Positions 1-53,945 of a stretch of DNA of 64,000 nucleotides are shown here, one piece after another. Each line of letters starts with the position of its first letter. Position 1 is the first letter of the stretch. Source of the DNA: Candidatus Xenobia bacterium (GTDB lineage Bacteria; Vulcanimicrobiota; Xenobia; Xenobiales; QWHO01); NCBI GenBank assembly GCA_045863235.1, contig BTUM01000019.1, forward strand, positions 18,691 through 82,690, in the 5' to 3' direction. The notes under the pieces were generated by a model. That model had not been told where the DNA came from, did not search any database, and saw nothing but the letters and a program-made list of their open reading frames with translations. Both the position numbers and the translations under genes were made by a program.

Positions 1-37
1 CCGCTGAGAAGAAAATTCTTCCTTCTCGTCAGCCCGA

Positions 38-2089
38 TTATTCGGCCGCCGCGGCAGCCGCCTTGGCCTGAGCGATGACGCCCTCGGCCACCGTGGGCGG
101 GGCCTCCTCGTAGTGGCTGAACTTCATGTTGAATTCGCCGCGACCCTGAGTCATGGAGCGCAGGTCGATCGAGTAGCGCAGCATCTCCGATGCCGGAACG
201 TTGGCCTTGACCATCTGCAACCCGCGACCGATGGGCTCCATGCCGAGAATACGCCCCCGCTTGGAGTTCAAATCGCCCATGATGTCGCCCATGAAGCTCT
301 CAGGAATGATGACCTCCACCTCCGTGATGGGCTCGAGCAACACGGGGTTCGCTTTGAGAGCCCCTTCCTTGAACGCCTTGGCGCCCGCGATCTGGAAGGC
401 CATGTCGGAGGAGTCGACGTCGTGGTAGCTCCCGTCATACAGGGTGACGCTCATATCCACCACCGGATAACCAGCCAGGAAGCCGTCCTTCATGGCATTC
501 TGGACGCCCTTGTCGACCGATGGGCGGAAGTTCCCCGGAATCACGCCGCCGACGATCTTGTCGATGAATTCGTAACCCTCGCCGCGAGCTTTGGGAGCGA
601 GCTCGAGCCAGACATCAGCGAACTGGCCACGTCCGCCGGTCTGCTTCTTGTGGCGGCCCTGAATCTTGACCGTGCCACGGATGGTCTCCTTGTAGGAGAC
701 CTTGGGATGCTCGAGCTCGACGTCTACGCCCGCCCGCTTGAGGCGGTTGACGCAGATGTCGATCTGCACATCACCCACGCCCTTGAGCAGCGTCTGACGA
801 ATCGAGTCGTCGCGCTCGACCTGCAGGGTGGGGTCCTCGGCCAGGATGTCGGCCAGCTTGCTGGAGAGCTTGTCCTCGTCTGCCTTGGACTTGGGATGGA
901 TGGCCTGCACGAAGTACGGCTTGGCGAACTTGATGGACGGAATGACAACCTTCTTGTCCTTGGTACAGAGAGTGTCGCCGGTCCGGGTTCCTTCCAACTT
1001 GGCTACCAGGCAGATGTCCCCGGCCGCAGCCTCTTCCAGGGGCTCCTGCTTCTTGCCGCGCAGAGTGAAGATGTTGGCCACCTTCTCGGAGCGCTCTTTG
1101 GTGGAGTTGTAGTATTCCCCGTTGGGCTTCAAGGTTCCCGAGAAAACTTTCATGTAGCTCAGCTTGCCCAGATACTGATCGGAGGTGGTCTTGAAGACCA
1201 GACCCGAGAAGGGCCCGGCGGGGTCGATCTTGGGGTCGGATTTACCTTCCAGCGGGTTGGGAACGTAGCGCAGGATGGCGTTCAGCAAAGGAGCCACGCC
1301 TCGAATATGGATAGCCGAGCCGCACAGCACGGGGACGATCTGGCCCGACTGGATGCGGCGCAACAGGCCGTCGCGCATCTCCTCGTCGCTCAGCTCCATG
1401 GTCTCGAGGTACTTTTCCATCAGCTCTTCCGTGGCCTCGGCCGCTTCCTCGGCCAGCTTTTCACGGTAGGTCTGGATGCGCTCATTCATATCGCCCGGGA
1501 TGGGAATCTCCTGAGGCTTGCCCTTGTCGTCGAACTTGTAGGCCTTCTGAGTGACCAGGTTGACCACCCCGGAGAAAGTGTCGGCGGTACCGATGGGCAG
1601 CTCGATGGGGACCAGACGGCTGCCCGAAAGTTTCTCGCTGCAGTCATCCAGGCAGCGGTAGAAGTCGGCGTTCTCCTTGTCCATCTTGTTGAAGAACATG
1701 ATGCGCGGCATTCCAAGCAGCTCGGCCTGGCCCCACACTTTCTCCAGGCCAACCTCGACCCCGGCCACGGCAGAGGCCAGCAGCACCAGGCCTTCGACCA
1801 CTCGCAGCGAGGCGGTGATCTCATACTGGAAGTCAAAAAAGCCCGGCAGGTCGAGCACGTTGATCTTATGGCCCTCCCACTCGACCGGCGCCAGGGCGGC
1901 GTAGATGGTCATCCGCCGGCTGACTTCCTCGGGATCGAAGTCGAGCAGGCTGTTGCCATCATCCACTTTGTGAAAGCGATCAGCCCCACCCGTGAGGTAA
2001 AGGATGGAGTCGGCCAGCGTGGTCTTTCCCGAGGCCTGGTGACCATAGAGTCCTACGTTGCGAATCTGTTCTGTGGAATACTTCTTCAC
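38..2089 (-). CDS. Elongation factor G family GTPase paralog (divergent, likely non-canonical)
   Basis: 683 aa. G1 motif is GHQASGKTT and switch I is RRMTIY. The G3 motif reads VLDLPGFFDF where canonical EF-G has IDTPGHVDF. Domains II-V follow. GTG start at 2087-2089 preceded by GAGGGAGGG. Confidence 0.8.
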   Translation of the reverse strand: MKKYSTEQIRNVGLYGHQASGKTTLADSILYLTGGADRFHKVDDGNSLLDFDPEEVSRRMTIYAALAPVEWEGHKINVLDLPGFFDFQYEITASLRVVEGLVLLASAVAGVEVGLEKVWGQAELLGMPRIMFFNKMDKENADFYRCLDDCSEKLSGSRLVPIELPIGTADTFSGVVNLVTQKAYKFDDKGKPQEIPIPGDMNERIQTYREKLAEEAAEATEELMEKYLETMELSDEEMRDGLLRRIQSGQIVPVLCGSAIHIRGVAPLLNAILRYVPNPLEGKSDPKIDPAGPFSGLVFKTTSDQYLGKLSYMKVFSGTLKPNGEYYNSTKERSEKVANIFTLRGKKQEPLEEAAAGDICLVAKLEGTRTGDTLCTKDKKVVIPSIKFAKPYFVQAIHPKSKADEDKLSSKLADILAEDPTLQVERDDSIRQTLLKGVGDVQIDICVNRLKRAGVDVELEHPKVSYKETIRGTVKIQGRHKKQTGGRGQFADVWLELAPKARGEGYEFIDKIVGGVIPGNFRPSVDKGVQNAMKDGFLAGYPVVDMSVTLYDGSYHDVDSSDMAFQIAGAKAFKEGALKANPVLLEPITEVEVIIPESFMGDIMGDLNSKRGRILGMEPIGRGLQMVKANVPASEMLRYSIDLRSMTQGRGEFNMKFSHYEEAPPTVAEGVIAQAKAAAAAAE

Positions 2090-2259
2090 TCTGAGTCCCT
2101 CCCTCAGCTAGGCAAGTGCGTGTGAGAACGTTGGAGCGCGAAAAATCCGCGTCACCTGGCCCGCAAGCCAGTTCTGGCGCCGCTGAGCCACCGACAATTC
2201 CAGCGCACGGCGAAGAATTCCTTCACATCAGCCGTGCGGGGAGAAACTTTGTGCGACCT

Positions 2260-2643
2260 TCAATCGAGCAGGGCCACGACCTCGATCTCGAGGCGAGCTC
2301 CCCGCGGCAGGCCGGCCACAGCCACCGTGGAGCGAGCCGGGGGCGGAACCGGCAGGTACTCTCCGTAGACCCGGTTGACCTCCGCGAAATCGTCCATCGT
2401 GACAAGGAAGATCACGGTCTTGACCACGCCCTCCAGAGAGCTTCCAGCCGCACCCAACACGGCCTTCAGATTCTCCATCACACGACGGGTCTGAGCCTCG
2501 AGGTCGCCCTCCACGAGCTGGCCGGTGGCCGGGTCGAGGGGGATCTGACCCGAACAGAACAGCAGGTTGCCGGCTCGCACGGCCTGCGAGTAAGGGCCAA
2601 TGGCGGCCGGAGCGTGGGGGGTGGAAACGGCGCTGCGGTTCAT
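2260..2643 (-). CDS. RidA/YjgF/TdcF family reactive-intermediate deaminase
   Basis: 127 aa. Carries the ...GPYSQAV..G.LLFCSGQIP... motifs and a C-terminal ...ARSTVAVAGLPRGARLEIE... segment typical of RidA. Confidence 0.85.
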   Translation of the reverse strand: MNRSAVSTPHAPAAIGPYSQAVRAGNLLFCSGQIPLDPATGQLVEGDLEAQTRRVMENLKAVLGAAGSSLEGVVKTVIFLVTMDDFAEVNRVYGEYLPVPPPARSTVAVAGLPRGARLEIEVVALLD

Positions 2644-3455
2644 GATGAGATCATTCCTCCGATCGGTTTTCGTTGGAGGCTCGCCAGGCGGCGGGCCTCC
2701 AACAGGGTGGGCAGGTCATCCACATTGAACGCGCTTTCGGCAAAGGGGGTCTCGATGCCGGCGCAGGCCACTCCACCCAGCACTCGTTTGCCCGCTTGCT
2801 CGGCCCGCCGAATGGTCAACCGGCCGAACAAAAACGCGAGCACCGGGCCCAGGCCCAGGATACGGGCCAGAGCCAGGGGATTCTTGCGCTGGCGCGTCAC
2901 GGCCACCAGGGCCGTTTGGACACGCTCGAGCACGCAAGGGCGGATCAGAAAGAGCCCCGTGCCGCAGAAGGTTCCCTCGGCCAGTCGGGCCCAGGTGTGG
3001 TGGAGCCCCGGATAGGCGCGCTCGGAATGCTCACGGCGCAAGAAACCATACCAAACGTCCACCTCGGGGCGACGGCGACAGCGATCCACAAAATCCGTCA
3101 CCGCTTCCGGCGTGAGAAAGGCCAGGTCGCCAGTCACCGAAAGCACGGGCTGCTCGGGATCGCGGGCCTGGCGCAAGCCGTTGGCGAAGGATTCGAGGAT
3201 GCTGGCCCCGGCCTGCACCACCGCGTCGGCCGCCCCGAACCAGGCCGGGTCAAGCTCCCCGGCCGGGACGGGACTGACCAGCACCACCCGGTCGACCCGC
3301 ACCGAGGCCTTGAGCGCCTGCAGGGGGCGCGCGGCCATGGGAGCCTCGCCGATTCTCACCAGGCCCTTGCCCGCCGGTTCGACCTCGCCCGGGGGCAGGT
3401 GGCCGAATCGACCGCCTGCCAACACCTGAGCGTCCACTCGAGCAGGAAAGCTCAT
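2640..3455 (-). CDS. MobA-like nucleotidyltransferase (NTP_transf_3 family)
   Basis: 271 aa. N-terminal VLAGGRFGHL...GKGLV glycine-rich NTP-binding loop and an internal TGDLAFLTPEAV motif. Overlaps ispE and ridA by 4 nt each. Confidence 0.55.
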   Translation of the reverse strand: MSFPARVDAQVLAGGRFGHLPPGEVEPAGKGLVRIGEAPMAARPLQALKASVRVDRVVLVSPVPAGELDPAWFGAADAVVQAGASILESFANGLRQARDPEQPVLSVTGDLAFLTPEAVTDFVDRCRRRPEVDVWYGFLRREHSERAYPGLHHTWARLAEGTFCGTGLFLIRPCVLERVQTALVAVTRQRKNPLALARILGLGPVLAFLFGRLTIRRAEQAGKRVLGGVACAGIETPFAESAFNVDDLPTLLEARRLASLQRKPIGGMISS

Positions 3456-4312
3456 CGCGGGCCCCGGAATCGAGTGCAGGTCACGCGCCCCAGACCGGCC
3501 AGTCGGGCGGCCACGGCCGCTCCCCCGGAGGTGAGCAGGCCAAAGAGGCAGGAACCGCTGCCCGAGAGCAGCACTCCCTGGCAGCCGGCTTCAAGCATCG
3601 ACTGGCGCAGCTCGGCCAGCCGAGGTTCGAGACGGGTTGCTGGAGGCTCGAGATCGTTGGCCAGGCCGGCCACCAGAGCGGCCAGGTCTCGCTGCTCCAA
3701 CGCCCTGACCACCCGCTCGGCGGCTCCCGGGGCGACCCGGACGGGCTGCTCGTCCCAGGCGCGATAAACTGGTCCGGTGGCCAGAGCGAAGGGCGGCTGC
3801 AGGACCACCACTTCGCAGGCAGGAGGAGCGGGCACCGCCTGCAGCAGGTCCCCCCGGCCCTGACCGCGGGCAGCTCCGCCCCGAATGCCAAAGGCCACGT
3901 CCGCCCCCAGCTCGGCCCCGATGCGCTCGAGCTCAGCGGGGGAATGGCCCAGGGAGAGCAGTTCGTTGGCTCCCACCAGGACGGCAGCAGCATCGGCGCT
4001 TCCACCTCCCAGGCCGGCGCCTGCCGGGATGCGCTTGATCAGGCGCACACTCAGCTCGACCCCCAGTCGATTCAGGGCTCGAACGGCCAGATTCTCCTCG
4101 GGGGGGCCCAGCGAGAGGCCGCCCTCCACCTCGTTGACAACCTCGAGACCCGAGCCAGAGGACAGTTCAACCTCGTCGTACCAATCCAGCCAGGCGAACA
4201 CGGTATCCAACCTGTGATAGCCACCCGGTAACAAACCGAGCACCTCCAGGGCCAGGTTCACCTTGGCCGGCGCCTCGACGGTCAACACGGCCAGGCTACT
4301 CGCCCTCTTCAT
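3452..4312 (-). CDS. ispE: 4-diphosphocytidyl-2-C-methyl-D-erythritol kinase
   Basis: APAKVNLALEVLG N-terminal motif and the GHMP kinase loop PAGAGLGGGSADAAAVL. Start taken at the internal Met (MKRASSL), not the ORF's first M at 4342. Confidence 0.85.
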   Translation of the reverse strand: MKRASSLAVLTVEAPAKVNLALEVLGLLPGGYHRLDTVFAWLDWYDEVELSSGSGLEVVNEVEGGLSLGPPEENLAVRALNRLGVELSVRLIKRIPAGAGLGGGSADAAAVLVGANELLSLGHSPAELERIGAELGADVAFGIRGGAARGQGRGDLLQAVPAPPACEVVVLQPPFALATGPVYRAWDEQPVRVAPGAAERVVRALEQRDLAALVAGLANDLEPPATRLEPRLAELRQSMLEAGCQGVLLSGSGSCLFGLLTSGGAAVAARLAGLGRVTCTRFRGPR

Positions 4313-6275
4313 CCTCGGACTTCGGAGAGGGGGTGATCTCATAGACCAGCGGTGTGTTGGCGACCTGAGAGACTTCGCGGGCCACCGCCAGCACCTGGGC
4401 GTAGTCTTGCACGGGGATCCATGGCTTTTTCACCACCAGCCGACTGTAAAACCAGGCTTCCCGACCCTCCTGGCGCGAGGTGAGCAGGAACGAGACATAG
4501 TCATTGTCCACCTGCACCGAGCCCGGCATGGACAGGATCTTGCTTCCCTCGGGCAACATCAGGTGCACCTGGCTGTCATCGCGGAAGGGATGGTCGAACT
4601 GCAGCGGATGCTCGCGGTCAGCCGGACTGTTCGCCAGAGAGGCGATGCGCTGATCGAGTTGGATGGGGATGCTCACCTGGCGTTTGTTGCCCTCGACCGC
4701 TACGTAATCCGGCACGATCAGCGTCATTCCCAGCGGAAAGCCCGGCCCGGCCGGCTCCTTGTCCGGGAAGTAACGCTCGTGAACCTGGGCCAGAGGGGAA
4801 TAGCTCTGGGCGATGGCTGCGAAGAGCGAGCGCAGAATGGTATCCCGCCGACCCCGGTCGGAGCTCGCCAGGGCGCGCACGGCTTCCCGCAGGAAGGTGG
4901 CCGACTCCCCATACTGCTGCTTGGAGATGGCCAGCTCGGCGCTGCCCTGCTCGTCCACTCTGGCCTCGATCTTCGTCTCGTCGCGATTCACGTCGAAGGC
5001 ATCAACGCTGGCATCGGCCAGACGAGGGCCCTCGGGACCCAGAAAGAGGGCCGCCCGCCCCTGGAAGCCGCCCGGAGGCCCCGAAATCAGCTGACCCGGG
5101 TGGGCCGGGTCGAACCAGAAGGGCTTGCCGCCAACATCGGGCAGATAGAGCAGCACGCGACCCACAGAAGTCGGCTGAGGGAGCAATCGGGCCACCTCTT
5201 CGGTTGGCTCGGTAAAGGCCAGCACAGGCTGGGTTCGGAACCCGGCGAACTCGAGCATGGCCGAGACCAGGATCGAGGTGTCCATGTAAGACAGGACCGG
5301 CTCGTCGATCAAATCACTGACCTTGTTGGGCAGGAACTGCTCGTAAGACAGGTCGACCTGCTTCTTGGAGGCCACGACCCAGTCGAGAATGGCCTGAACC
5401 CGAGCCGTGGGCGTGGCGGCAGTGGGGAGCAAACCCGAGGTGATCATCCCCAGTCGGGGTCCACCCGCCGAGTTCTCCCGCCAACTGGAATAAAACCAAT
5501 CGCCCAGCTCGTTCCAGGATTTGAAGCTGGACAAGTCCACCCGCCTGAGCAAGGATTCCGCCTCGGGCATGGCCGGCTCGGTGCGCAGAGCGGCCTGATC
5601 GCTCACCTGCCAGCGCAACACCTGGCTTTGATCGGCCACGGAGCGGGCCGGCCGCGAGGGCACCAGGCCCGGGGCGGCCCAGTGCACGTCGGTCCCCAGC
5701 GGGCTCTTCACGGTGAAAATCGAGACCAGCAGCGGCTCGGGGTTCTGAACATAGGAGGTGGCCCACCAGGCGTTGCGATAGTGGGGCTTGCGGGTTGTCG
5801 TCAGCTTGTATTCCAACACCGACCCGGGCGCCAGCTTGGGGAACTCGAACTCGAAACGGCGATAATCGCCGTAAACTTTGGATTTAGGCAGCAGAGGTGC
5901 GTCCACCACCGAATCGGGCTCGAGATCGTGCACCACCTGGTCGGGCCCGATGACCCGGGCCTCGTGCAAGGTGACCTCGCCATATCCCTGGCGGTAGACT
6001 CGGACCAGCGTCTGATGCGGCTCAATCCCCTCGCTGGTAAGAATCTTCACGATGTCATATTCGCTGTAGGCCGTGGAAGCGTCGCTCTTGAGCTCGAATC
6101 CGATATCATCGTAGAGAATGATGGCCGCCGCGTCGGGGAACTGCTGAGGGCCCGGAGAATTGACGAAGCGGCTGTCCTTGCGAAGCAGCGTACGCCCGGG
6201 CTGGCCCTGAACCGAGCCGCAAAGACCAACCGAAAAGAGCAGTGCCCCCACTAACCAGACTCGTCCTCTAAGCAT
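4296..6275 (-). CDS. Secreted DUF3857 + transglutaminase-like domain protein
   Basis: 659 aa. Signal peptide MLRGRVWLVGALLFSVGLCGSVQG. N-terminal DUF3857-like region, a transglutaminase-like core and a C-terminal acidic tail. Confidence 0.6.
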   Translation of the reverse strand: MLRGRVWLVGALLFSVGLCGSVQGQPGRTLLRKDSRFVNSPGPQQFPDAAAIILYDDIGFELKSDASTAYSEYDIVKILTSEGIEPHQTLVRVYRQGYGEVTLHEARVIGPDQVVHDLEPDSVVDAPLLPKSKVYGDYRRFEFEFPKLAPGSVLEYKLTTTRKPHYRNAWWATSYVQNPEPLLVSIFTVKSPLGTDVHWAAPGLVPSRPARSVADQSQVLRWQVSDQAALRTEPAMPEAESLLRRVDLSSFKSWNELGDWFYSSWRENSAGGPRLGMITSGLLPTAATPTARVQAILDWVVASKKQVDLSYEQFLPNKVSDLIDEPVLSYMDTSILVSAMLEFAGFRTQPVLAFTEPTEEVARLLPQPTSVGRVLLYLPDVGGKPFWFDPAHPGQLISGPPGGFQGRAALFLGPEGPRLADASVDAFDVNRDETKIEARVDEQGSAELAISKQQYGESATFLREAVRALASSDRGRRDTILRSLFAAIAQSYSPLAQVHERYFPDKEPAGPGFPLGMTLIVPDYVAVEGNKRQVSIPIQLDQRIASLANSPADREHPLQFDHPFRDDSQVHLMLPEGSKILSMPGSVQVDNDYVSFLLTSRQEGREAWFYSRLVVKKPWIPVQDYAQVLAVAREVSQVANTPLVYEITPSPKSEDEEGE

Positions 6276-8591: not shown

Positions 8592-10523
8592 TTACTCCAC
8601 CATCGTGATCGAAGTCGCGCCGGGGCCCAACGGGATCCGGCGGTCCACCGTCTCGCGGGTGGCGCTGACGACGACCACCTCGCCCTGCTCGGTAACGGCC
8701 CAGATCTCGTCTCCCTGCAGGGTGGCGGCCGTCAGCTTGCCCCCTACGGTGACCGCTTTTGACAGGCTCAGCTCGACCGGGGAGAGGGGACCGAGAGTGC
8801 CGCTCTCGTTGACCACCCAGATCTTCTGGCCGTCAGGAGGAACGAGAATGGCGAACGGGCGCGTTCCACCCGTGTCGCGGCCCGTCCTGAGCGCCTCGGC
8901 GCAATTTGGCAGGCGGTAGCTCTGAACGTGACCATCCACGGGCAGAGCCACCAGCAGATTGGACTTGTTGGCCGAGAGCGCCAGCGCTCCGGCACCGGCC
9001 AGGGGAACCTTGAGCAATTCCTTGACCACCGGATAAGGCTCCACGCAGACCAGCTCGTTCCCCGTGAGGCTGGAGAGGTAGAGCTTCCGGCCGCTGAGGT
9101 CCGTGCCGCCCTCGAGAGAAGGAGAGGCACCCGGATCGGGCACGGGAGCATCCAGAGCCATCCCCTGGGCGTCCCTGCCCAGGGCCACCAGGCCAACCAT
9201 GGCGTCCTTGCGCTTGAGCGGGCCGTCCTTTTGCTCGGGCAGAGCTTTAGGATCGAGCGAGACGATGGACACCTGGCCCATCTCGGAGTTCAACAGATAG
9301 AGCAGTTGGCCCGAGGGGTCCATGAGCAAGCGCCGGCAACCCGGGTCGATCTTCAATTCGCCCACGATGCGGTTGCTGCGCGTGTTGATCAGCTTGAGGA
9401 AGCCATTCTCTGTGGAGGCAAAGAGCTTCTTCCCGTCCGGGCTGGAGACCACGGCAAGAAACTTGTCCTGCTCGAGAGGGATACGGGTCAAGACGGTCTT
9501 GTCGGCCCGATTGACCACATAAATGGCGTTACCGCAAGCCACGTAGGCGGCAGCTCCTTGCCTGGCAAGGATGGGGGGGTTGAGCAACTGGTTGGAATAC
9601 CATAGCAAGGCGAGCAGGCCCACCACTTCCAGGGCCACCAGGTAGACCGGCTGCTTGAGAAAGGCCCACAATAGATTCTGCCAGGCGCGCGTATAGCTGT
9701 AGCTCCAGCGGGCGAAACGGGCCAGACCAAAGTTGATTCTGCGGACCTCCACCTTCTCTTGCACGGGAGGGTGGAGCACGTCGTTAAGGTTCTTTTTGAG
9801 CTCTTCGAAGGAGAAATAGAGCCCCTTGTCCTCGGCCGACAGACAACGGTTGATGACCTTGGCGAGCTCGGGGCTGACCGGGTCGGACTGCGAGCAACCA
9901 AAGGGACCGGGCTCCTTGCGGGCCAGAAAGAAAAACACTGTCTCCCCGAACTTGCGGATGTCACTTGCGATGACCGAGGCCTGAGCGGAGAACTCGGGCG
10001 CGTCCTCGTCGCCCAGGAAGCGGTCGAGACCGTAGTTGATCAGCTTGAGCTTGCCTTCCGAGTCGACCATGATGTTGGACGGATCGAGGGCGTCGAAGAT
10101 GAACGGTTTGGGGCGATTGTGCAGGTAGTGCAGCGCGTCGCACAGAGCGATGCCCCACTCGAGCACCTGGGGCTCGGGCTGGCCCTTCACGCTCATCTCG
10201 AGCAGGGTCTTCATGGTGATGCCATCGACCCGCTCGAGCACCACATACTGACGGCGCCCTTCGGAGAAATGGTCGAACATCTTGGTCAGGCCTGGATGAT
10301 CGAACTCGCGCAACACCTCCATGGCCTCTTGCAGCTGCCGGGTGCGCTCGGTCACCTGCTCCTCGCTCAAGGAGGGGTGCGGGATCATCTCTTTGAGAGC
10401 GAATTTCTGATCGTCGGAGGTGCGCTTGGCCACATAGACGCCCCCCTTCTCGCCGAAGGTAAGGGTCTTGACGACCACGTAGCGGCCTTCCGCGAGCTCC
10501 TGGCCAGGGAGTAGCTCTTTCAT
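8592..10523 (-). CDS. Ser/Thr protein kinase-like pseudokinase fused to TM segment and C-terminal beta-propeller
   Basis: 643 aa. Kinase fold with Gly loop and FALKE lysine. Catalytic loop reads FDALDPSNIMV where HRDLKPxN is expected. The DFG motif is replaced by NYG. A TM segment (LVALEVVGLLALLWY) is followed by YVTN/PQQ-like propeller repeats. Confidence 0.75.
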   Translation of the reverse strand: MKELLPGQELAEGRYVVVKTLTFGEKGGVYVAKRTSDDQKFALKEMIPHPSLSEEQVTERTRQLQEAMEVLREFDHPGLTKMFDHFSEGRRQYVVLERVDGITMKTLLEMSVKGQPEPQVLEWGIALCDALHYLHNRPKPFIFDALDPSNIMVDSEGKLKLINYGLDRFLGDEDAPEFSAQASVIASDIRKFGETVFFFLARKEPGPFGCSQSDPVSPELAKVINRCLSAEDKGLYFSFEELKKNLNDVLHPPVQEKVEVRRINFGLARFARWSYSYTRAWQNLLWAFLKQPVYLVALEVVGLLALLWYSNQLLNPPILARQGAAAYVACGNAIYVVNRADKTVLTRIPLEQDKFLAVVSSPDGKKLFASTENGFLKLINTRSNRIVGELKIDPGCRRLLMDPSGQLLYLLNSEMGQVSIVSLDPKALPEQKDGPLKRKDAMVGLVALGRDAQGMALDAPVPDPGASPSLEGGTDLSGRKLYLSSLTGNELVCVEPYPVVKELLKVPLAGAGALALSANKSNLLVALPVDGHVQSYRLPNCAEALRTGRDTGGTRPFAILVPPDGQKIWVVNESGTLGPLSPVELSLSKAVTVGGKLTAATLQGDEIWAVTEQGEVVVVSATRETVDRRIPLGPGATSITMVE

Positions 10524-20374: not shown

Positions 20375-21200
20375 CGGTCGGGTCCTCCTTCAGTACTTTG
20401 CCCACCAACTCGACATGCAAGCGGTGGCCGGCCTTGACCGCCACCACCCGGGCCATCAGATCGCATCCAAGCAGTGCCAGATCCCCCACCAGGTCAAGAC
20501 ACTTGTGACGCACGGGCTCGTCGGGAAAACGAAGCTCTGAGGTGTAGCCGTCGGAACGGATCACCAGAGCGTTGGACAGATCTCCCCCCCTGGCCAGACC
20601 CCTCTCGAGCAGGGCCTCGACCTCCTCCATGAAGCCATAGGTGCGAGCCGCAGCCAATCCTGAGAGGAAGCTCTCCGGGGTAGGCGTGTGATGAACCTGC
20701 TGGTAGGTGATCATCGGATGCTGATAATGCAGCGAATACTCCAGCCGCGCCTCGGCCGCAGGCAGAGCCAGCACCAGGGCGTTCTCGTCGCCCACCCAGA
20801 GAGGTCGCGTCAGCACGTGCCGGCAGGCGGGCCGCTCCTGGCCAACGACGCCGACGGCCAGAAAGGCCTCCGCGAACGGCAGAGCAGAGCCGTCCAGAAT
20901 GGGCACCTCAGGGCCCTCGATCAAGATGCGGAGGTTGTCGAGTCGAAGACCCGCGCAGGCGGCCAGCAAATGCTCGACGGTGCTGACCGAAACCCCCCCG
21001 GCCGAGAGCACGGTGCAGCGCTCGACTGAGCTCACCCGGGCGTGCAAGGCGGGGATCTCCTGACCGTGACGAACGAACACCCGACCGGAGTCGACGGGAG
21101 CCGGCAGTACTTCAACCCGGGCCAACTGGCCCAGGTGAATGCCCACCCCCTCGAAGCGCACCGGGGCAGCCAGTGTTTGCTGGGGCCTGCTCACTTCCAT
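20295..21200 (-). CDS. lpxC: UDP-3-O-acyl-N-acetylglucosamine deacetylase
   Basis: QQTLAAPVRFEGVGIHLGQ N-terminus and HxxEH-type zinc motifs (VEHLLAACAG). Start taken at the internal MEVSRPQQTL. The 3' end overlaps the fabZ start by about 70-80 nt in a different frame. Confidence 0.85.
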   Translation of the reverse strand: MEVSRPQQTLAAPVRFEGVGIHLGQLARVEVLPAPVDSGRVFVRHGQEIPALHARVSSVERCTVLSAGGVSVSTVEHLLAACAGLRLDNLRILIEGPEVPILDGSALPFAEAFLAVGVVGQERPACRHVLTRPLWVGDENALVLALPAAEARLEYSLHYQHPMITYQQVHHTPTPESFLSGLAAARTYGFMEEVEALLERGLARGGDLSNALVIRSDGYTSELRFPDEPVRHKCLDLVGDLALLGCDLMARVVAVKAGHRLHVELVGKVLKEDPTDVGDERNQEEVAPPLPMPALGSGSGA

Positions 21201-22999
21201 TCGGTCCCTCCCGGAACTTGCAGAGGACCGGAGGTAGTCGGCTCGCCCTGCCCCGTCACGTCGTGCCATTGCAGTTCGGCCGGGTAACTCGAGGAGGCCT
21301 CGGGGAAGGTCAGCAGACGCACGACCTTCTTTTCGCCCGGCCCCAGGTCGAAGTGGCGAACCAGGCTTGGCGGAGCGCCTTGCGGCTTGCGAAAGGGGGT
21401 TTCATAAACCTTGCCGTCGATGAGAAACGAGCCGGCGGCGGGTCCGTTCAGAGGCAGAAAATAGAGACCCACCCGGACCGGGAAGGGGCGCGGATTGATC
21501 AGTGTCGTCTCCAGCCGATAAAACACCCCGAAATTGCCGGTGTTGGGCAACCCGGTTTCGAAGTCGATCAGCCAGGGATCTTCTCCGAAGCGCACCCCGA
21601 CCGGGGCTCCCCCGGTGCGAAACTCGAGCTCTTCTTCGAAATATGGCTGGGCAAAGACGCCGTGGGGGTGAATCTTGAAAGGGTTGAAGGGGGCGCCCAG
21701 GTGGGGCAACTTCTTACCGTCGTTGAAGCTGGGGGCCAGCTCGGTGCGCACTTCGACCTCCAGCGACTCGCCTTCCAGAATGCGGAGGTTGGCAAAGCCG
21801 GTCACCAGAGCCTGGGTGCCAACCTCATGGGCAGCCAGCTCCAGCTTCGTCCGCGGCGGCATGGTGAGCACGTAACCAGCGCCGTCCCCCTCTTGCTCGA
21901 GAAATCGCGTGGCCGAGGTGTGCCCTACCAGAACCTCGTTCCGACTCGGACCAGCGTACAGCGTGTTGACCAGCACCTTGACTGCCTGGTCGTTGGGGTT
22001 CTCCAGATTGACCCACAGGTTGCGCTTGCCTTTGGAGATGTTTTTATGGCTGTACATCAGCCGGCTGGGCTCTTTCTGGCTGAACTTGTATTGCAGCAGG
22101 ACCCCATCCACGTCAACGAGTTCGGGGCGATTGGAGACCAACAGCAAGTTGGCCTCGACCGGCTCGACGTCCAGGCTGCTGACCACAACGGGCAGGCTCC
22201 TGGCGACAGGATAATAATCCTCGCTGCCTTCGATCTTGATAGGCACGGTCAGTCGCATCATCTGGCCGCGCGGGACGGAAGGGAGCTCGCTCAAATCCCC
22301 CCCCACGCTCATCACACAGCCCGGACGCACCCGGGCCTGCACATAGGCTTCCCGCAAGACCCCTTCGGCCACCACCGCGCCCGGGGCTGGATTGCCCACC
22401 ACCTGGACGTTGACCACCTCGGGCAAGGTTCCGGCCCAGTCCTTGACGTGGACGAAGAGATAGGCCTGACCCTGGCCTCGACGCACCTTCAAGCGGGTCT
22501 TGCCCACCCGCGATCCGGTCAGGGTCAAGAGCCCGGTCTCATCGACCGCAGCCTGGACCACCCCGTTGGCGTCCTCCACCTCGATGGGCCCTTCGGCCAG
22601 GCCGGTCACCTCGATCGTGCGCGCCTCGCCAACGGGCATAACCACTCGCCCGGGAGAAAGTCGCACCAACCCATCGGCGACCAGCTCGTGCAGGTTGTTG
22701 GCCCAGCGCAGAGCCAGCTTGAGGGGGTCGCTCTGGTTGGCCGCGGCCATGCTCCTGGTGACCTCGACGATCAGCACCCCGCCCCAGAGAATGGTGGCGC
22801 CATTCTTACTCTTGACGACCTTGATGCCTTCGGGGTCGGCCCCTCGCTCGAGTTGCGCTTCGATGCGCCGGGACACGGCTTCGGCCTGCTCGGCGCTTTC
22901 CAGTCGCATCACGACTCGATCGCCCAGAGTGACTTCCTGGGCCAGACCAGGCAAAGCCAGGGCCAGGAAAAAGACCATAACCAGGACCCGAACGCTCAC
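21191..22999 (-). CDS. Secreted hypothetical protein (602 aa) embedded in lipid A cluster
   Basis: Signal peptide MSVRVLVMVFFLALALPGLAQE. No recognisable enzymatic motifs. Beta-rich composition. Confidence 0.55.
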   Translation of the reverse strand: MSVRVLVMVFFLALALPGLAQEVTLGDRVVMRLESAEQAEAVSRRIEAQLERGADPEGIKVVKSKNGATILWGGVLIVEVTRSMAAANQSDPLKLALRWANNLHELVADGLVRLSPGRVVMPVGEARTIEVTGLAEGPIEVEDANGVVQAAVDETGLLTLTGSRVGKTRLKVRRGQGQAYLFVHVKDWAGTLPEVVNVQVVGNPAPGAVVAEGVLREAYVQARVRPGCVMSVGGDLSELPSVPRGQMMRLTVPIKIEGSEDYYPVARSLPVVVSSLDVEPVEANLLLVSNRPELVDVDGVLLQYKFSQKEPSRLMYSHKNISKGKRNLWVNLENPNDQAVKVLVNTLYAGPSRNEVLVGHTSATRFLEQEGDGAGYVLTMPPRTKLELAAHEVGTQALVTGFANLRILEGESLEVEVRTELAPSFNDGKKLPHLGAPFNPFKIHPHGVFAQPYFEEELEFRTGGAPVGVRFGEDPWLIDFETGLPNTGNFGVFYRLETTLINPRPFPVRVGLYFLPLNGPAAGSFLIDGKVYETPFRKPQGAPPSLVRHFDLGPGEKKVVRLLTFPEASSSYPAELQWHDVTGQGEPTTSGPLQVPGGTEWK

Positions 23000-27452: not shown

Positions 27453-30005
27453 TCAGAACGACTGGCCGATGCCCAGACTGGCCCGACCGCCGTCTTCTCC
27501 GAAGGCGTAGTCGATGCGGATGACGCCCAGCCCGAGGCTGGGGAACACGATGCGAAGACCGGCTCCGACGTCAGCTTTGAGGGCGCCCGAGGTGACCCCC
27601 GGAGTCCAGGCATTGCCGGCGTCAGCAAACACAGCCCCACGCAAGAACTTGATGCGGCCGATTCCGAAGCGATACTCGGCGTTCAGCACCACGAAGCGGG
27701 TTCCGAAGAAGGCGTTCTCACGATAGCCACGCAACGTGTCCGTGCCACCCGCGAAGAAGAACTCCGAAACCGGGGCGTTCCCGTTCAGCATTCCGGCCCA
27801 GGCCCGCATGGCCAGGGTCGAGTTGCTACCGAACGGAATGTAGGAGCGGCCCTCGGCGACCAGCTTCGTGTAGCTGAAATCCCCACCCAGACCGGCAAAG
27901 GCGACCGAGCCGTTGGCAAAGTTGCCCACGGTCGGATTGAAAACATCGTCGCGCGTGTCGTAGAGGGCCGAGACGGCCAGGCTGTTCAGATCGCCATTTC
28001 CAATGCCCACGGGCACGAACAGCGATTCTGGATCCTGGGTAATCTCGATGGTCTCGCGGCGGAAGGTCAAGAAGCCGCGGAAGTCGTCGGTAAAGGGATG
28101 TCCGTAGGTGATCGTGCCGCCATAGCGGCGATCATCATACAGGGCGAACTGATCGGGATTCCCGCCGATGACCGGCTGGCGTAGCCCGGAAACTTCGTTG
28201 AGGAACAAGGAGATGCCGATGGAGTCCTGGTTGTCGTTGATGGCCGGATCGAAGTAGCTCAGGCCCAGAGCGCTGATGTTGGCACCGCGCTGCCACTGGA
28301 CGCTGACCGACTTGCCCTGGCCGAAGAGGTTGCGGTCGGAGAAAGAGATGGCACCGGTGATGCCCGGTCGCACCGCGCCCGAGCCGCCACCGGCATAACC
28401 CACGCCGATGGTGGCCAGGCCCGTCTTCTGCTCTTCCACCGCCAGAACGAGCACCACCTTGCCCGGCTCGGTGCCAGGCTCGGGCTCGATATTGACTTTC
28501 TTGAAGTAACCGAGGTTGTTGAGACGCTCGAGGTCCTTTTGAATCTTGCGCCGCTGCAAGACCTCACCGGGCTTGGTGCGCAGATTCCTGGTGATGGTGT
28601 CGGTTTCGGTCTTGGTGTTGCCCTCGACCCGAATCTCTTCCACCACAGCCTCGAGCACCTTGAGGGTCACCGCGCCCTGATCGGGATCAAGCCGCGGACG
28701 GATGGTATCCAGAATGTAGTCGTTCTTTTCGTACAACTCGGCAACGCGAGCACTGTCTTCTTTGATGGTCTTCTGGTTGAAGAGCTCGCCGACTCGGGTC
28801 TGAACCAACGAGCGAACCTCTTGCTCCGGAAAAACGGTCACACCCTCGATGCTCACGGATTGAACCAGCATGCCATCCTTGATAGTGAGGGCGAGGGTTC
28901 CCTCGCCCCACTTCAAGTCGACCACGTGAGTCGGGGTAAGCAGGTAGCCGAGGTCCTCGTTATAGTACTTATTGATGTTCTGAATGTCGGCGTGCAGAGT
29001 GCGAGTATTCAGAATCTTGCCAGCCCTGGTCTCCATCAACTCGACGATCTTTTCGGTGGGAACCACCTGGTTACCACTGATCACCACCTGGTTGACCATC
29101 GGATTCTCGAGCACCCGGAAGATCAGTCGCACTCCTCCGGGAGCGCCACGCGTATCCAGGCGCACGTCGGTGAAGTAACCCAGATCGAAGATAGCCTGCA
29201 TGTCACGACGCAGCCGCGGCTCGAGCACCGGATCACCGATGCGGGTCGAGACCACCTGCAACACCTCTTCCGTGGGAACCTGAGCGTTGCCCTCGATCTC
29301 GATATTGACCACGCGGGGCGCGGCGGACTCGGGTGGCTGCTCCTCTCCCCCGGGGGTCGGGGTCTCCTCCGAGCCCGGAGCCACGGCGGCCGAATCCACT
29401 GGCAGAATGTCGCGACCGAGCGGAGCCTGAGCGTAACGGGCCGACGAGACGATCATCTCGCGATTGGCCCCCAGGGTAAAAATGACCGAAACCGTGTCGC
29501 CCGCCTTCAATCCTTCGGCCAACTGGCTGTCGGGCGAAACCAGGAAGATCATGTCCCTCTCGCTGCCATCGGCAGCCTTGCCGCGCACACTGAGTTTTTC
29601 GTCTTCGAGCAACAGGACCTGACCGCTGAAACGATAGGTGCCCTCGGGCAGACTGTCGGCAGCGGGGCTCTCCGCGGGAGGCGTTCCTTCGCCGGCCGGC
29701 GCAGCACCCTCACCTTCAGTCGGCTGAGGCGGAGCCGCGCCATCGCCCTCTGGCGGCTGAGGGGGCGCCCCGCCGGGCTGGGGAGGAACGGCGCCCTCAC
29801 CCTCCGCAGGCTGGGGAACCGGGGCCTCAGGCGAGGCCCCCTCCTCCCCGTCGGCCGCGGGCTGAGCCGGAACCGCCTCTTCTTCGGCGGCTACCACCCC
29901 GGACTCGGACGCTCCGCCACCCGGCAACTCCTGAGCCAACACCCCCACGGGCAAGCTCATAAAGAGCATGGCAACCACCAGGGCGAGGCTAATTTTCTTC
30001 TTCAT
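27453..30005 (-). CDS. bamA: Outer membrane protein assembly factor BamA (Omp85) with N-terminal Pro/Glu-rich extension
   Basis: 850 aa. Signal peptide, about 200 aa of low-complexity PPQP/EGEGA repeats, POTRA domains, and a 16-strand barrel ending ...IDYAFGEDGGRASLGIGQSF. Confidence 0.9.
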   Translation of the reverse strand: MKKKISLALVVAMLFMSLPVGVLAQELPGGGASESGVVAAEEEAVPAQPAADGEEGASPEAPVPQPAEGEGAVPPQPGGAPPQPPEGDGAAPPQPTEGEGAAPAGEGTPPAESPAADSLPEGTYRFSGQVLLLEDEKLSVRGKAADGSERDMIFLVSPDSQLAEGLKAGDTVSVIFTLGANREMIVSSARYAQAPLGRDILPVDSAAVAPGSEETPTPGGEEQPPESAAPRVVNIEIEGNAQVPTEEVLQVVSTRIGDPVLEPRLRRDMQAIFDLGYFTDVRLDTRGAPGGVRLIFRVLENPMVNQVVISGNQVVPTEKIVELMETRAGKILNTRTLHADIQNINKYYNEDLGYLLTPTHVVDLKWGEGTLALTIKDGMLVQSVSIEGVTVFPEQEVRSLVQTRVGELFNQKTIKEDSARVAELYEKNDYILDTIRPRLDPDQGAVTLKVLEAVVEEIRVEGNTKTETDTITRNLRTKPGEVLQRRKIQKDLERLNNLGYFKKVNIEPEPGTEPGKVVLVLAVEEQKTGLATIGVGYAGGGSGAVRPGITGAISFSDRNLFGQGKSVSVQWQRGANISALGLSYFDPAINDNQDSIGISLFLNEVSGLRQPVIGGNPDQFALYDDRRYGGTITYGHPFTDDFRGFLTFRRETIEITQDPESLFVPVGIGNGDLNSLAVSALYDTRDDVFNPTVGNFANGSVAFAGLGGDFSYTKLVAEGRSYIPFGSNSTLAMRAWAGMLNGNAPVSEFFFAGGTDTLRGYRENAFFGTRFVVLNAEYRFGIGRIKFLRGAVFADAGNAWTPGVTSGALKADVGAGLRIVFPSLGLGVIRIDYAFGEDGGRASLGIGQSF

Positions 30006-40029: not shown

Positions 40030-42096
40030 TTATTGCTTGGGTCCCAGCTCAACCAGCAGCGCTTGCGCCCCATACAGCCTGTCCAGTGCCTCCAGCACGG
40101 CCTTGGAATGGACGGCGATGTGGCGCGCCTGCTGGTCGGTATAAACGAAGTTGCGCACCAACCCGTAGCGGTTCCGGTCAAAGTTGATCCCCACCAGCTG
40201 GCCGGCCCGGTTGATGACCGGACTGCCCGAATTGCCCCCGATGGTGTCAGCCGTGGAAACGAAGTCGAAGGGGGTTTGCAGGTTCAAGCGAGCCTTGCCC
40301 TCCAGCCAGCGGACTGGCAGTTGGAAGGGAGCCGCGTTATGATGTTCGGCAGCCAGTTGGAAGGCCTCGCCGAAGGTCGTGAACCAGGGAACCTCCTTGC
40401 CTCCAACCTGATAGCCCCCCACGCGACCGTAAGCCAACCGCAAGGAAAAGGTGGCGTCGGGGGCCATGGTGGGACCATCGAGGGTGAACATCCCCCGGGC
40501 GATCTGGGCGTAGGCACGCCGCTCAGGCTCTTCGACCTCGCTCTCCATGCGCTTGCGCAGGGCGCGGGAACGCCCATCCACGGCCAGTGCCAGCTGGATC
40601 ATGGCATCCTTCTCCCGGGCCAGGGAATCCGCGTCCAGACCGGCCAATCGCTTGCGCTCGGCCACTTCGAAAAGACGCGTCCCGGCAACCAGCTCGGCCG
40701 CCCGAAGCTCGGGCGAGAGAGGACCCAGAGCCTGGCGTAGAGTGGGCTCCTCGCCGCCCAGCACCTCGGCCGCGAAAGTCAGCGAGTCGGCCAACCGGAC
40801 CCTCTCCAGGTCGGGCTCGATCGGTGCCGGTGAAAACAGGGTCAATTCGAGTGACTCCAGCGCCGTGTCCCGGTATTCGCGCAACCGCTGGTCGCTGGGT
40901 AGCGGACGCTCGGCAGCCAGACGCACCAGATGACGTGCGATGGCAAACAGCTCCGAGTCGAAGGCGTTGGCCTGCTCGAAGAGGGAATGCTCGCGCTCGA
41001 AGGAGGTCAAAGCCTTCTGGCTGCGCGCAATCTCCTGAAAGGCCAGATTGGCCTCCGGCAGCTGGCGCTGGAAGCGCTCTTGCAGGCTCTTCTGAGCCGC
41101 CCGTTTGGCGGCCATGATGTTGTCGTTCAGGAGGCCCTGGAACTGGCCGGCGTAGGCTTTGCGAGCATTGGCGACGCTGTAGAGCTCTCCCTGAGCCTGG
41201 CGAGCCTGCTCGGGACCAAGCTGGGCATACTGAAGCAGGTTGGCCTCGGCATGACGGACCCGGGCCAGCCGGTAAGGCAGCGTCAGGTCGCGCAGGTGCT
41301 CGAGTCGCTCGACGGTATCCAGGCGGTTGGTGCGGCCGGGATTACCGACCACGAAGACCAGCTCGCCGGCCTGGGGCCCGGCCGGGTTGAAGGGTAGAAA
41401 ATCGGGCGTAACAGCCGGCTTGCCGTTCTCGTAGACGCGAAAGAAGCACACGTCGAAGTTGTAGCGCGGATACTCGAAATTGTGGGCATCTCCCCCGAAG
41501 AAAGCGATGGCTTGCTCCGGAGCCATCACCAGCCGCACATCGGTGTACTTCTTGAAGCGGTAAAGGTGATAAGCGCCGCCCTGATAGAGGGTGATGATGT
41601 CGCTGCGCAGGCCGGTCCGGTCGGCCGACTCCTTCTCAATTGCGGCCATGGCTGCGCTGCGCGCCCCGGCCGCCTGGTCGGGGGGTATGCCTGGCTTGAC
41701 GGCGGCCTCCACGCGCTCGGTCACGTCCTCGATCTCCAGCAAAACGTTGAGCTCGAGGTCGGCGCAGGGCAACTCTTCGGCCCGCGTCCGGGCCAGATAA
41801 CCCTGCTGCACCAGGTCTCGCTGGGGGGTGCTGAGCTTCTGGAGAGCATCGGCCCCGATGTGATGATTTGTGACCACCAGGCCCTCGGGACTCACGAACG
41901 AGCCCGAGCCTCCGTTGTTGAAGCGAACCGCCGCCCGCATCACCCGCTGCAGCCAGGCATCGGTCAGCTCGAAACCATAGTCGCGCTTGATCCGCTCTTT
42001 AGGAGGAGCGTTCAGCAGCCACATGCCCTCGTCGGCCTGGCCAGGGGCCGTTAGTGCCAGAGTCAGGCTCAGCAGAGCGCCCAGCAAGACCTTCAT
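40030..42096 (-). CDS. S46 family dipeptidyl-peptidase (DPP7/DPP11-like)
   Basis: Signal peptide followed by DEGMWLLN, VTNHHIGA (His), and serine-protease D/S motifs. 688 aa. Confidence 0.85.
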   Translation of the reverse strand: MKVLLGALLSLTLALTAPGQADEGMWLLNAPPKERIKRDYGFELTDAWLQRVMRAAVRFNNGGSGSFVSPEGLVVTNHHIGADALQKLSTPQRDLVQQGYLARTRAEELPCADLELNVLLEIEDVTERVEAAVKPGIPPDQAAGARSAAMAAIEKESADRTGLRSDIITLYQGGAYHLYRFKKYTDVRLVMAPEQAIAFFGGDAHNFEYPRYNFDVCFFRVYENGKPAVTPDFLPFNPAGPQAGELVFVVGNPGRTNRLDTVERLEHLRDLTLPYRLARVRHAEANLLQYAQLGPEQARQAQGELYSVANARKAYAGQFQGLLNDNIMAAKRAAQKSLQERFQRQLPEANLAFQEIARSQKALTSFEREHSLFEQANAFDSELFAIARHLVRLAAERPLPSDQRLREYRDTALESLELTLFSPAPIEPDLERVRLADSLTFAAEVLGGEEPTLRQALGPLSPELRAAELVAGTRLFEVAERKRLAGLDADSLAREKDAMIQLALAVDGRSRALRKRMESEVEEPERRAYAQIARGMFTLDGPTMAPDATFSLRLAYGRVGGYQVGGKEVPWFTTFGEAFQLAAEHHNAAPFQLPVRWLEGKARLNLQTPFDFVSTADTIGGNSGSPVINRAGQLVGINFDRNRYGLVRNFVYTDQQARHIAVHSKAVLEALDRLYGAQALLVELGPKQ

Positions 42097-52886: not shown

Positions 52887-53945
52887 TCACGGAGTCCAGT
52901 CGTCTTGCTTCTTCACCGACTGGCAGAAGGCTGCCAGCAAACGCACGCAATTGTCGAGGTCGTCAAGCTCGAGCATCTCGCAAGGATTGTGCATGTAGCG
53001 CAAGGGGATAGAGAGCAGTCCGGCTGCGACTCCTGCCCTGGAAAGCTGAATGACGTTGGCGTCGGTTCCGGTACCCCGAGGATTGGCCTCGACCTGATAG
53101 GGAATCTTGCCCGCCTCGGCCACCTCGACCAGACGCTGGAAAACGTGAGGATTGACGTTGGGGCCCCGAGCGATGACCGGGCCCTTTCCCATCTGGATGT
53201 CTCCGTGGCGCTTCTTGTCCGAGTCAGGCAGGTCGGTGGCATGGCAGACATCAATGGCGATTCCGATGGTGGGATTGATCCCGTAGGCGGCCGTCTGGGC
53301 CCCGCGTAACCCGATTTCTTCCTGCACCGCCGAGACTCCGTGCACCGATGCCGCCAGCTTCTTGCCCTTGAGCGAGCGCAAAGTCTCGGCCACGACATAG
53401 AGACCGCAGCGGTTGTCGAAGGCTTTGGAAGCAGCTCGACCATTGCGCAACAAGGTGAGACTGGCATCCATCGTAACCGGGTCGCCCAACTTGACCAGCT
53501 CGCGTGCCTCGTCACCGGAAGTGGCCCCGATGTCCACCCACATCTTGTGCAACTCGGACTTCTTCTTGCGCTCTTCCTCGTCCATGAGGTGGATGGCGCG
53601 CTTACCGAAAACGCCGGGTATGGAGCCCGAGGCGGTGTGCACCAGCGCCCGCTGAGCCACGATCACCTCGGCGTCCCAGCCCCCCGAGGCCACCACGAAG
53701 AGGTAGCCCTTGTCGTCGATGTACTTGACCAGAAAGCCGATCTCATCGGAGTGACCGTCGAGCATGATGCGGGGATTGCCCTTGGGGTTGGCGACAGCGA
53801 TCACCGAGCCCATCAGGTCGGTGCGCATCTCCCCCACCTGGCCCTCCAGGCGAGCACGAAAAACTTTCTGAACAGCCTGCTCATAGCCGGGCGTGCCGTG
53901 CGACTCAACGAGCTGTTGAAGGAACTCCAGGGCGCCCTTCTTCAT
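52887..53945 (-). CDS. M42 family metallopeptidase (FrvX/glutamyl aminopeptidase-like)
   Basis: GTPGYE ... MLDGHSDEIGF ... motifs. 352 aa. Confidence 0.85.
   Translation of the reverse strand: MKKGALEFLQQLVESHGTPGYEQAVQKVFRARLEGQVGEMRTDLMGSVIAVANPKGNPRIMLDGHSDEIGFLVKYIDDKGYLFVVASGGWDAEVIVAQRALVHTASGSIPGVFGKRAIHLMDEEERKKKSELHKMWVDIGATSGDEARELVKLGDPVTMDASLTLLRNGRAASKAFDNRCGLYVVAETLRSLKGKKLAASVHGVSAVQEEIGLRGAQTAAYGINPTIGIAIDVCHATDLPDSDKKRHGDIQMGKGPVIARGPNVNPHVFQRLVEVAEAGKIPYQVEANPRGTGTDANVIQLSRAGVAAGLLSIPLRYMHNPCEMLELDDLDNCVRLLAAFCQSVKKQDDWTP

Follow-up and report, generated by a model that had tools for sequence, protein, structure and literature searches.

The minus-strand gene at positions 38..2089 of the stretch analysed here (64 kb of contig BTUM01000019.1 from a Candidatus Xenobia bacterium, hereafter the window) encodes a paralog of elongation factor G (EF-G) that is, judged by its sequence, of the EFG II or EF-G2 type, and thus an ordinary new member of a described family. 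The catalytic His of switch II is replaced by Phe in the motif DLPGFFDF, and this replacement of His is a trait of the whole family, not a peculiarity of the window gene. The favoured and fairly probable function of the protein is that of a GTP-binding, hydrolysis-poor alternative translocase or ribosome factor of the EFG II type.

The EFG II subfamily was described by Margus, Remm and Tenson (2011, PMC3150367) and is the EFGII of Atkinson (2015). According to the former study, it is distinguished from EFG I by Gly16, Leu25, Ser61, Thr291, Gly333 and Lys/Arg352 in the numbering of PDB entry 1WDT, the EF-G-2 of Thermus thermophilus. Five of these six signature residues are found in the window protein (G16, L25, T301, G345 and K364), while position 61 is occupied by Thr, as in 1WDT and in 39 of the 120 closest homologs. 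The sequence motifs of the subfamily are present as well (GxxxxGKT, DxPG, NKMD and GSA), with a G2 motif relaxed to RRMTI and the cation-site Asp replaced by Ala. Among NCBIfam models the best is NF009381, a subfamily model named ‘elongation factor G’ (868 bits), followed by TIGR00484 for canonical EF-G (707 bits), whose cut-off of 659.4 is nevertheless passed. The same order is seen for 1WDT (808 for NF009381 versus 489 for TIGR00484) and is reversed for the canonical EF-G of Dictyoglomus (1149 for TIGR00484 versus 870). TIGR00484 is therefore not the best model of the window protein despite the score above cut-off, and the P-loop AHIDAGKTT and switch II motif DTPGH of canonical EF-Gs are absent from it, with GHQASGKTT and DLPGF instead. 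Finally, a neighbour-joining tree (57 sequences, 687 columns) separates canonical sequences with AHIDAGKTT and DTPGH from all other sequences in 100 of 100 bootstraps, the window protein and 1WDT being among the others. Collectively, the signature residues, the order of the NCBIfam models and this split assign the protein to EFG II, which agrees with the EF-G2-like paralog proposed in an earlier note on this DNA.

Other families of translational GTPases were compared and rejected. The cut-offs of the Bacteroidota EF-G2 model NF058620 (1000) and of NF009377 (‘EF-G-like protein EF-G2’; 890) are missed, with scores of 535 and 593, respectively. Models for Tet(M)/Tet(O), RF3, LepA and BipA/TypA are far below their cut-offs (tet_protect 308 versus 775, prfC 163 versus 473, lepA 123 versus 534, TypA 177 versus 757). 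Within EFG II, the clade of the window protein is marked by GHQ[GA][AS]GKT together with DxPGF and comprises sequences with the labels Eremiobacterota, Candidatus Xenobia or Armatimonadota. An AlphaFold2 (AF2) model computed from 59 sequences has a mean local confidence (pLDDT) of 91.6 and a predicted template-modelling score (pTM) of 0.84; its best template-modelling (TM) scores, 0.85-0.92, are to ribosome-bound EF-G (7n2v, 0.92; 4v90, 0.88), with 0.86 for the ribosome-bound EF-G2 of Bacteroides thetaiotaomicron (8dmf).

Alignment with HMMER places Phe84 opposite His87 of T. thermophilus EF-G (DTPGHVDF) and GHQASGKTT opposite AHIDAGKTT. In the P-loop, Ala is changed to Gly16, Ile to Gln18 and Asp to Ala19, with G21, K22 and T23 kept. 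Three residues of the G domain are thus missing, namely the switch II His (Phe), the cation-site Asp of the P-loop (Ala) and the Ile of the hydrophobic gate (Gln); the P-loop Asp is the monovalent-cation ligand of translational GTPases (Atkinson 2015). Both motifs were read from the raw bases and all five EF-G domains (G domain, II, III, IV and V) are matched by Pfam in the 683-amino acid protein. The His-to-Phe change, the divergent P-loop and the retention of domains II-V, as claimed in the earlier note, accordingly hold. In the same switch II motif, Leu81 (codon given as 1850..1852) gives DLPG in the window protein and its three closest relatives, where 106 of the 120 homologs and canonical EF-G have DTPG; T84A at the equivalent position of T. 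thermophilus EF-G is a known fusidic-acid-resistance change, according to the title of PDB entry 2BM0.

Could the Phe be an artefact of sequencing error or frameshift, or the gene a decaying pseudogene? This explanation can be practically dismissed. The open reading frame (ORF) runs without interruption from a GTG start, backed by the N-termini of homologs (MKKY.., VKSF.., LKKY..), to a TAA stop, and an independent Logan assembly, L001 (DRR491769), codes for the identical protein. DLPGFFDF recurs in three relatives, L002 (98% identity; Candidatus Eremiobacteraeota metagenome-assembled genome (MAG) KLAP168, CAUJEN01) and the Logan assemblies L082 (90%) and L084 (84%). The Phe codon in the latter two is TTC, against TTT in the window, a synonymous difference. 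Over the complete gene, the ratio of non-synonymous to synonymous substitution rates (dN/dS, Nei-Gojobori) is 0.03-0.11; the G domain taken by itself has 0.03-0.14, and the lowest values belong to domains IV and V (0.02-0.07). Since Phe is kept through a synonymous codon change and dN/dS is low, neither a sequencing error nor a pseudogene accounts for it, and the check for a frameshift at the GFF codons, on which the earlier note had made its claim depend, revealed none. The EF-G2 gene is functional, purifying selection on it is strong, and its G domain is not decaying.

The distribution of the residue following DxPG points in the same direction. It is Phe in 68 and Tyr in 52 of the 120 closest homologs, and His in none. 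An exhaustive search of 1.84 billion cluster representatives with HMMER provides a broader sample, its 150 best representatives at 50% clustering, in which Tyr (66) and Phe (34) prevail over D (11), L (6), A, N and S (5 each) and others. His is confined there to seven fully canonical EF-Gs and two odd sequences, leaving 141 of 143 non-canonical representatives without it. Three representatives are odd in their motifs (P0146, P0267 and P0178): two have the P-loops GQRGCGKTT and GQDGAGKTS yet His after D.PG or D.SG, and one is without the Walker A lysine (GSGTTT).

The other columns of the 120-homolog alignment show where conservation stops. In the P-loop, G, K and T are invariant, but the Ile position is Gly in 79 and Gln in 28 sequences and the Asp position is Gly in 90, Asp in 20 and Ala in four. 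Invariant or nearly so are the residues that bind the nucleotide (P-loop G/K/T, switch I Thr/Ser, D/P/G of switch II, N/K of NKxD, S/A of G5) and those of the domain IV tip loops (Q483, G485, G486, G488, Q489, H556, V558, D559, S560 and S561). Losses are limited to the ribosome-activated catalytic apparatus (His, cation-binding Asp and gate Ile).

In the window protein itself, all residues that bind Mg-GTP are kept (GxxxxGKT, the switch I Thr, Asp and Gly of DxxG, NKMD and SA), as are the five-domain architecture of EF-G and, at the tip of domain IV, the loops reaching into the decoding centre. The protein is thus equipped for GTP binding and for the shape of EF-G, without the canonical residues that activate hydrolysis. 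It would be an accessory paralog, expected alongside a canonical fusA in the same genome. In its GTP form it would bind the ribosome at the EF-G site, and the binding energy would drive tRNA-mRNA translocation or hold a particular ribosome state. GTP hydrolysis and release of inorganic phosphate would be slow or absent; turnover and release of the factor would therefore be slow and the GTP cost low. By analogy with the EF-G2 proteins of B. thetaiotaomicron and Mycobacterium smegmatis, a role in translation during starvation or stress, rather than in fast growth, is most likely.

Published observations agree with this proposal. The B. thetaiotaomicron EF-G2 translocates without GTP hydrolysis, as the work of Han (2023) is cited in PMC12775393 and PMC12172202, and it is induced or accumulates under carbon limitation. 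The M. smegmatis EF-G2 (MsmEF-G2), with Tyr for His, has no ribosome-dependent GTPase activity, and the H88Y mutation in MsmEF-G1 nearly abolishes the activity of that factor. With His mutants of EF-G or non-hydrolysable GTP analogues, translocation is still possible and factor release is greatly slowed. The translocase part of the proposal is made because of the Bacteroides and Thermus members and the conservation of domain IV.

Several observations weigh against a hydrolysis-poor translocase. T. thermophilus EF-G-2, with Tyr at the His position, is reported to have intrinsic and ribosome-dependent GTPase activity and to promote translocation (PMC3150367; bioRxiv 10.64898/2026.05.25.727771), so that loss of the His alone is no proof of lost hydrolysis. 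Likewise, the H91A mutation of Escherichia coli EF-G lowers hydrolysis only ~7-fold, but phosphate release ~90-fold (PMC4532990). MsmEF-G2, for its part, is apparently no translocase. The window protein is also less diverged from canonical EF-G than the EF-G2s studied so far: it passes the TIGR00484 cut-off and is 44% identical to T. thermophilus EF-G, against 38% to T. thermophilus EF-G-2 and 33% to B. thetaiotaomicron EF-G2. No biochemistry of this protein or of any Phe-type member was found in the literature, and co-occurrence with a canonical fusA was checked within the 64-kb window. Two statements of the earlier note are affected. A strongly impaired GTPase is not safely deduced from the missing His, and the description of such paralogs as functionally uncharacterised is outdated, members from Thermus, Mycobacterium and Bacteroides having been studied with conflicting GTPase results.

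The GTPase activity of the Thermus protein, whose DAPGYGDF motif was confirmed in 1WDT, and the mild effect of H91A in that one E. coli study open the way to another explanation, namely that the window protein is still a competent ribosome-dependent GTPase and serves as a second, somewhat slower EF-G, with catalysis from another group such as Gln18, rRNA or a water positioned by the backbone. All nucleotide-binding motifs are retained, and the acidic G' helix KLAEEAAEATEELMEKYLE is present in the translation, the region contacting L7/L12 being conserved in EFG II (Margus 2011, PMC3150367). Gln18 is, moreover, conserved throughout the nearest clade and among the top 120 homologs co-occurs only with Phe (27 of 27). 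However, Phe has neither hydroxyl nor imidazole and cannot stand in even for the Tyr of Thermus; the cation-binding Asp is lost too; and H88Y nearly abolishes the GTPase of MsmEF-G1, while MsmEF-G2 and B. thetaiotaomicron EF-G2 are without GTPase activity. The association of Gln with Phe is in addition confounded by clade; among the representatives, those with Gln divide into three with Phe and three with Tyr. A competent GTPase of this kind is therefore considered rather unlikely. A special form of it, in which Gln18 has taken over the positioning of the water in the Phe-type clade (Xenobia, Eremiobacterota and Armatimonadota-labelled MAGs), is quite improbable. In the P-loop, Gln18 takes the place of the hydrophobic-gate Ile/Val, beside the gamma-phosphate; the catalytic Gln40 of dynamin occupies the same position in the P-loop GGQSAGKS. 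If true, the catalytic site of a translational GTPase would have arisen anew, within its P-loop.

A different possibility is suggested by M. smegmatis EF-G2, for which the role of a stress-specific, non-translocating regulator has been proposed, bound at the factor site of the 70S ribosome or the 50S subunit and modulating translation or protecting ribosomes. That protein binds non-ratcheted 70S and 50S particles, on which its G domain is shifted off the sarcin-ricin loop and the loops of domain IV are moved away from the tRNA; recycling activity is absent, and the protein has been described as a stress factor. Loss of the His is common to both proteins, but the window protein is far less degenerate: the P-loop His, NKMD, GSA and the RxxTI of switch I are all kept in it, whereas its mycobacterial counterpart has changes in each. 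The tip loops of domain IV in the window protein, invariant or nearly so in the family, and a dN/dS of ~0.06 argue for a function in the decoding centre such as translocation. A purely regulatory role is thus unlikely.

It might also be imagined that the protein is the sole EF-G of the organism, whose lineage would then translate with a His-less translocase. Neither a canonical fusA nor the genes of the str operon were found within the 64-kb window, and TIGR00484 is passed (707 versus 659). The window is, however, a small fraction of the genome, the gene lies outside a str-operon context, and EFG II was always accompanied by another EFG in the 590 genomes surveyed by Margus 2011 (PMC3150367), which makes a sole EF-G very improbable. 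Two other ORFs of the window were considered as fusA candidates and rejected: one, of 688 amino acids (40030..42096), encodes an S46 peptidase, and the other, of 602 amino acids (21191..22999), has no Pfam match. The hydrolysis-poor accessory factor of the EFG II type remains the preferred reading.

For annotation, the consequence is that a protein passing the EF-G equivalog cut-off and publicly named ‘elongation factor G’ can be mistaken for fusA, when its proper label is EF-G2/EFG II. The biochemistry of EFG II is conflicting, with an active GTPase in the Thermus member and inactive ones in those of Mycobacterium and Bacteroides, and the His position is occupied by Phe instead of Tyr in about half of the nearest relatives of the window protein. 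A protein of the Phe type that, like this one, is well conserved and has degenerated little would provide a clean test of the Tyr hydroxyl as the source of the residual GTPase activity, and could also show whether hydrolysis-free translocation is general in EFG II. For translation biology as such nothing is categorically new, the family having been defined since 2011, with three members studied.

Features of the EFG II gene and of its upstream region (window coordinates; residues numbered in the 683-amino acid protein)
Feature	Position	Strand	Basis
Complete gene of EFG II / EF-G2 type	38..2089	-	NCBIfam NF009381, 868 bits (cut-off 583); five Pfam domains
G domain with G' insertion, residues 7-278	1256..2071	-	Pfam PF00009; AF2 pLDDT ~90 or higher
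G1 / P-loop GHQASGKTT, residues 16-24	2018..2044	-	Read from raw bases
Switch I Thr61, Mg2+-coordinating Thr of RGITI (here RRMTI)	1907..1909	-	Family S81/T39 in 120 homologs
G3 / switch II DLPGFFDF, residues 80-87	1829..1852	-	Read from raw bases
Phe84 codon, in place of the catalytic His	1838..1840	-	HMMER alignment, family column table
G4 NKMD, residues 134-137, guanine specificity, intact	1679..1690	-	Sequence and family column table
Domain II, residues 293-376, with signature residues T301, G345 and K364	962..1213	-	Pfam
Domain III, residues 388-460	710..928	-	Pfam PF14492
Domain IV, residues 462-581	347..706	-	Pfam PF03764
Domain IV tip loop QTGGRGQ, residues 483-489	623..643	-	
Domain IV tip loop HDVDSS, residues 556-561	407..424	-	
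Domain V, residues 583-669	83..343	-	Pfam PF00679
Putative ribosome-binding site CTGAGGGAGGGACTCAG	2091..2107	-	Conserved in L002, L082 and L084
Conserved upstream block, ~65 nt, TGAAGGAATTC ... GGAATT ... GGCTCAGCGGCGCCAGAAC	2160..2225	-	Window, L002, L082 and L084

The location of the gene is not that of a str-operon fusA (rpsL-rpsG-fusA-tuf), in line with the earlier note, which proposed to look for a canonical fusA in the str operon elsewhere. It ends a co-directional run formed by oligopeptide ABC ATPases, DUF3857, IspE, an NTP transferase, RidA and EFG II, and is followed by a lipoprotein gene. The order DUF3857-IspE-MobA-like NTP transferase-RidA (2260..6275, minus strand), with EF-G2 next, is found again, complete or partial, in L082, L084, L086, L087 and L088 (Xenobia, Eremiobacterota and Armatimonadota-labelled MAGs), relatives whose EF-G2 identity goes down to 53%. 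RidA is missing in L088 and is the sole shared gene of the block in L086, and variable inserts separate it from EF-G2, an aldehyde dehydrogenase in L082 and a 200-amino acid ORF in L084. Clustering of the ORFs from 81 loci revealed no partner gene conserved across phyla, only a lineage-specific housekeeping synteny in Bacillota, which shares nothing with the block in the window; no dedicated partner gene is evident.

The lipoprotein gene, predicted to encode 462-474 amino acids, lies downstream of EF-G2 in longer contigs. It is found at 5362..6750 of L001, just beyond position 1 of the window, and at 8177..9565 of L082, 7489..8883 of L084 and 8225..9649 of L086. A signal peptide containing a Cys lipobox and a linker rich in Gly, Thr and Asn are recognised in the product, which is not matched by Pfam. 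It evolves fast, with ~59-64% identity among close relatives where EF-G2 has 84-90%, and ~30% to L086; L088 carries two near-identical tandem copies of a similar lipoprotein.

Upstream of the gene, the Shine-Dalgarno core GAGGGAGGG at 2097..2105 is 7 nt from the GTG and is conserved in close relatives. The strong ribosome-binding site announced in the earlier note is thus present, but good expression does not follow from it, Shine-Dalgarno strength being no proof of high expression. A perfect 5-bp inverted repeat (CTGAG/CTCAG), possibly a hairpin, encloses GGAGGG in a loop of 7 nt and ends 1 nt upstream of the GTG. L002 and L082 share this repeat, and L084 does so in part (one wobble pair and one mismatch). 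Farther upstream, the block at 2160..2225 is kept in spite of a synonymous divergence (dS) of 0.3-0.9 in the coding sequence and of an upstream gene that is not the same in L082. This block may be a promoter, an operator or a leader for regulated expression. No sigma-70-like promoter was found in 1..2700, no Rfam family reached its gathering score anywhere in the 64 kb, and RNAalifold predicted only a weak structure for the leader (-12.45 kcal/mol, covariation -0.5).

The window is GC-rich and contains many long overlapping ORFs, among them one of 670 amino acids on the plus strand (113..2125), antisense to the entire EF-G2 gene. These, 113..2125 included, are shadow ORFs and not genes. Other genes of the window encode a BamA/Omp85 homolog (27453..30005), the S46 peptidase mentioned above, a Ser/Thr kinase (8592..10523) and a response regulator with HD and BTAD domains (53942..56407).

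Among known systems, T. thermophilus EF-G-2 (PDB 1WDT/2DY1) shares with the window protein NF009381 as best model, its side of the 100/100 split, the G16...L25 pair, the absence of His after DxPG and a five-domain fold (TM 0.80). Its motifs, confirmed in 1WDT, are GHAGSGKTTL and DAPGYGDF. It differs by Tyr in place of Phe, TKLD in place of NKMD and a shorter G' (665 versus 683 amino acids), at 38% identity, and the GTPase activity reported for it may not carry over to the Phe variant. The EF-G2 of B. thetaiotaomicron (PDB 7UVP/8DMF; NF058620) is likewise an EF-G paralog encoded outside the str operon and counted as EFG II in the literature (TM 0.86). It supports slow translocation without GTP hydrolysis, as is proposed for the window protein, and is induced by starvation. 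In their work of 2023, Han and colleagues reportedly ascribed the lack of GTPase activity in Bacteroides EF-G2 to a 26-residue insertion. The window protein stands outside this Bacteroidota group, with 535 bits against the NF058620 cut-off of 1000, 33% identity and 683 versus 718 amino acids.

In the EF-G2 of M. smegmatis and Mycobacterium tuberculosis (FusA2; PDB 9K0Z/9K10), the switch II His is also replaced by an aromatic residue, here Tyr98. This protein is likewise an accessory paralog, and its ribosome-dependent GTPase activity is minimal. It is much more degenerate than the window protein, with GPSGG in the P-loop, QQRSV in switch I, TKLD as G4 and VCSS as G5, and the two align in two stretches with only 423 bits. 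Canonical EF-G (EFG I; fusA; TIGR00484) has in common with the window protein the five domains, the domain IV tip loops, NKMD and the G' insertion, at 44% identity to the T. thermophilus factor. It differs by AHIDAGKTT with DTPGH, by its place on the opposite side of the 100/100 split and by its normal location in the str operon.

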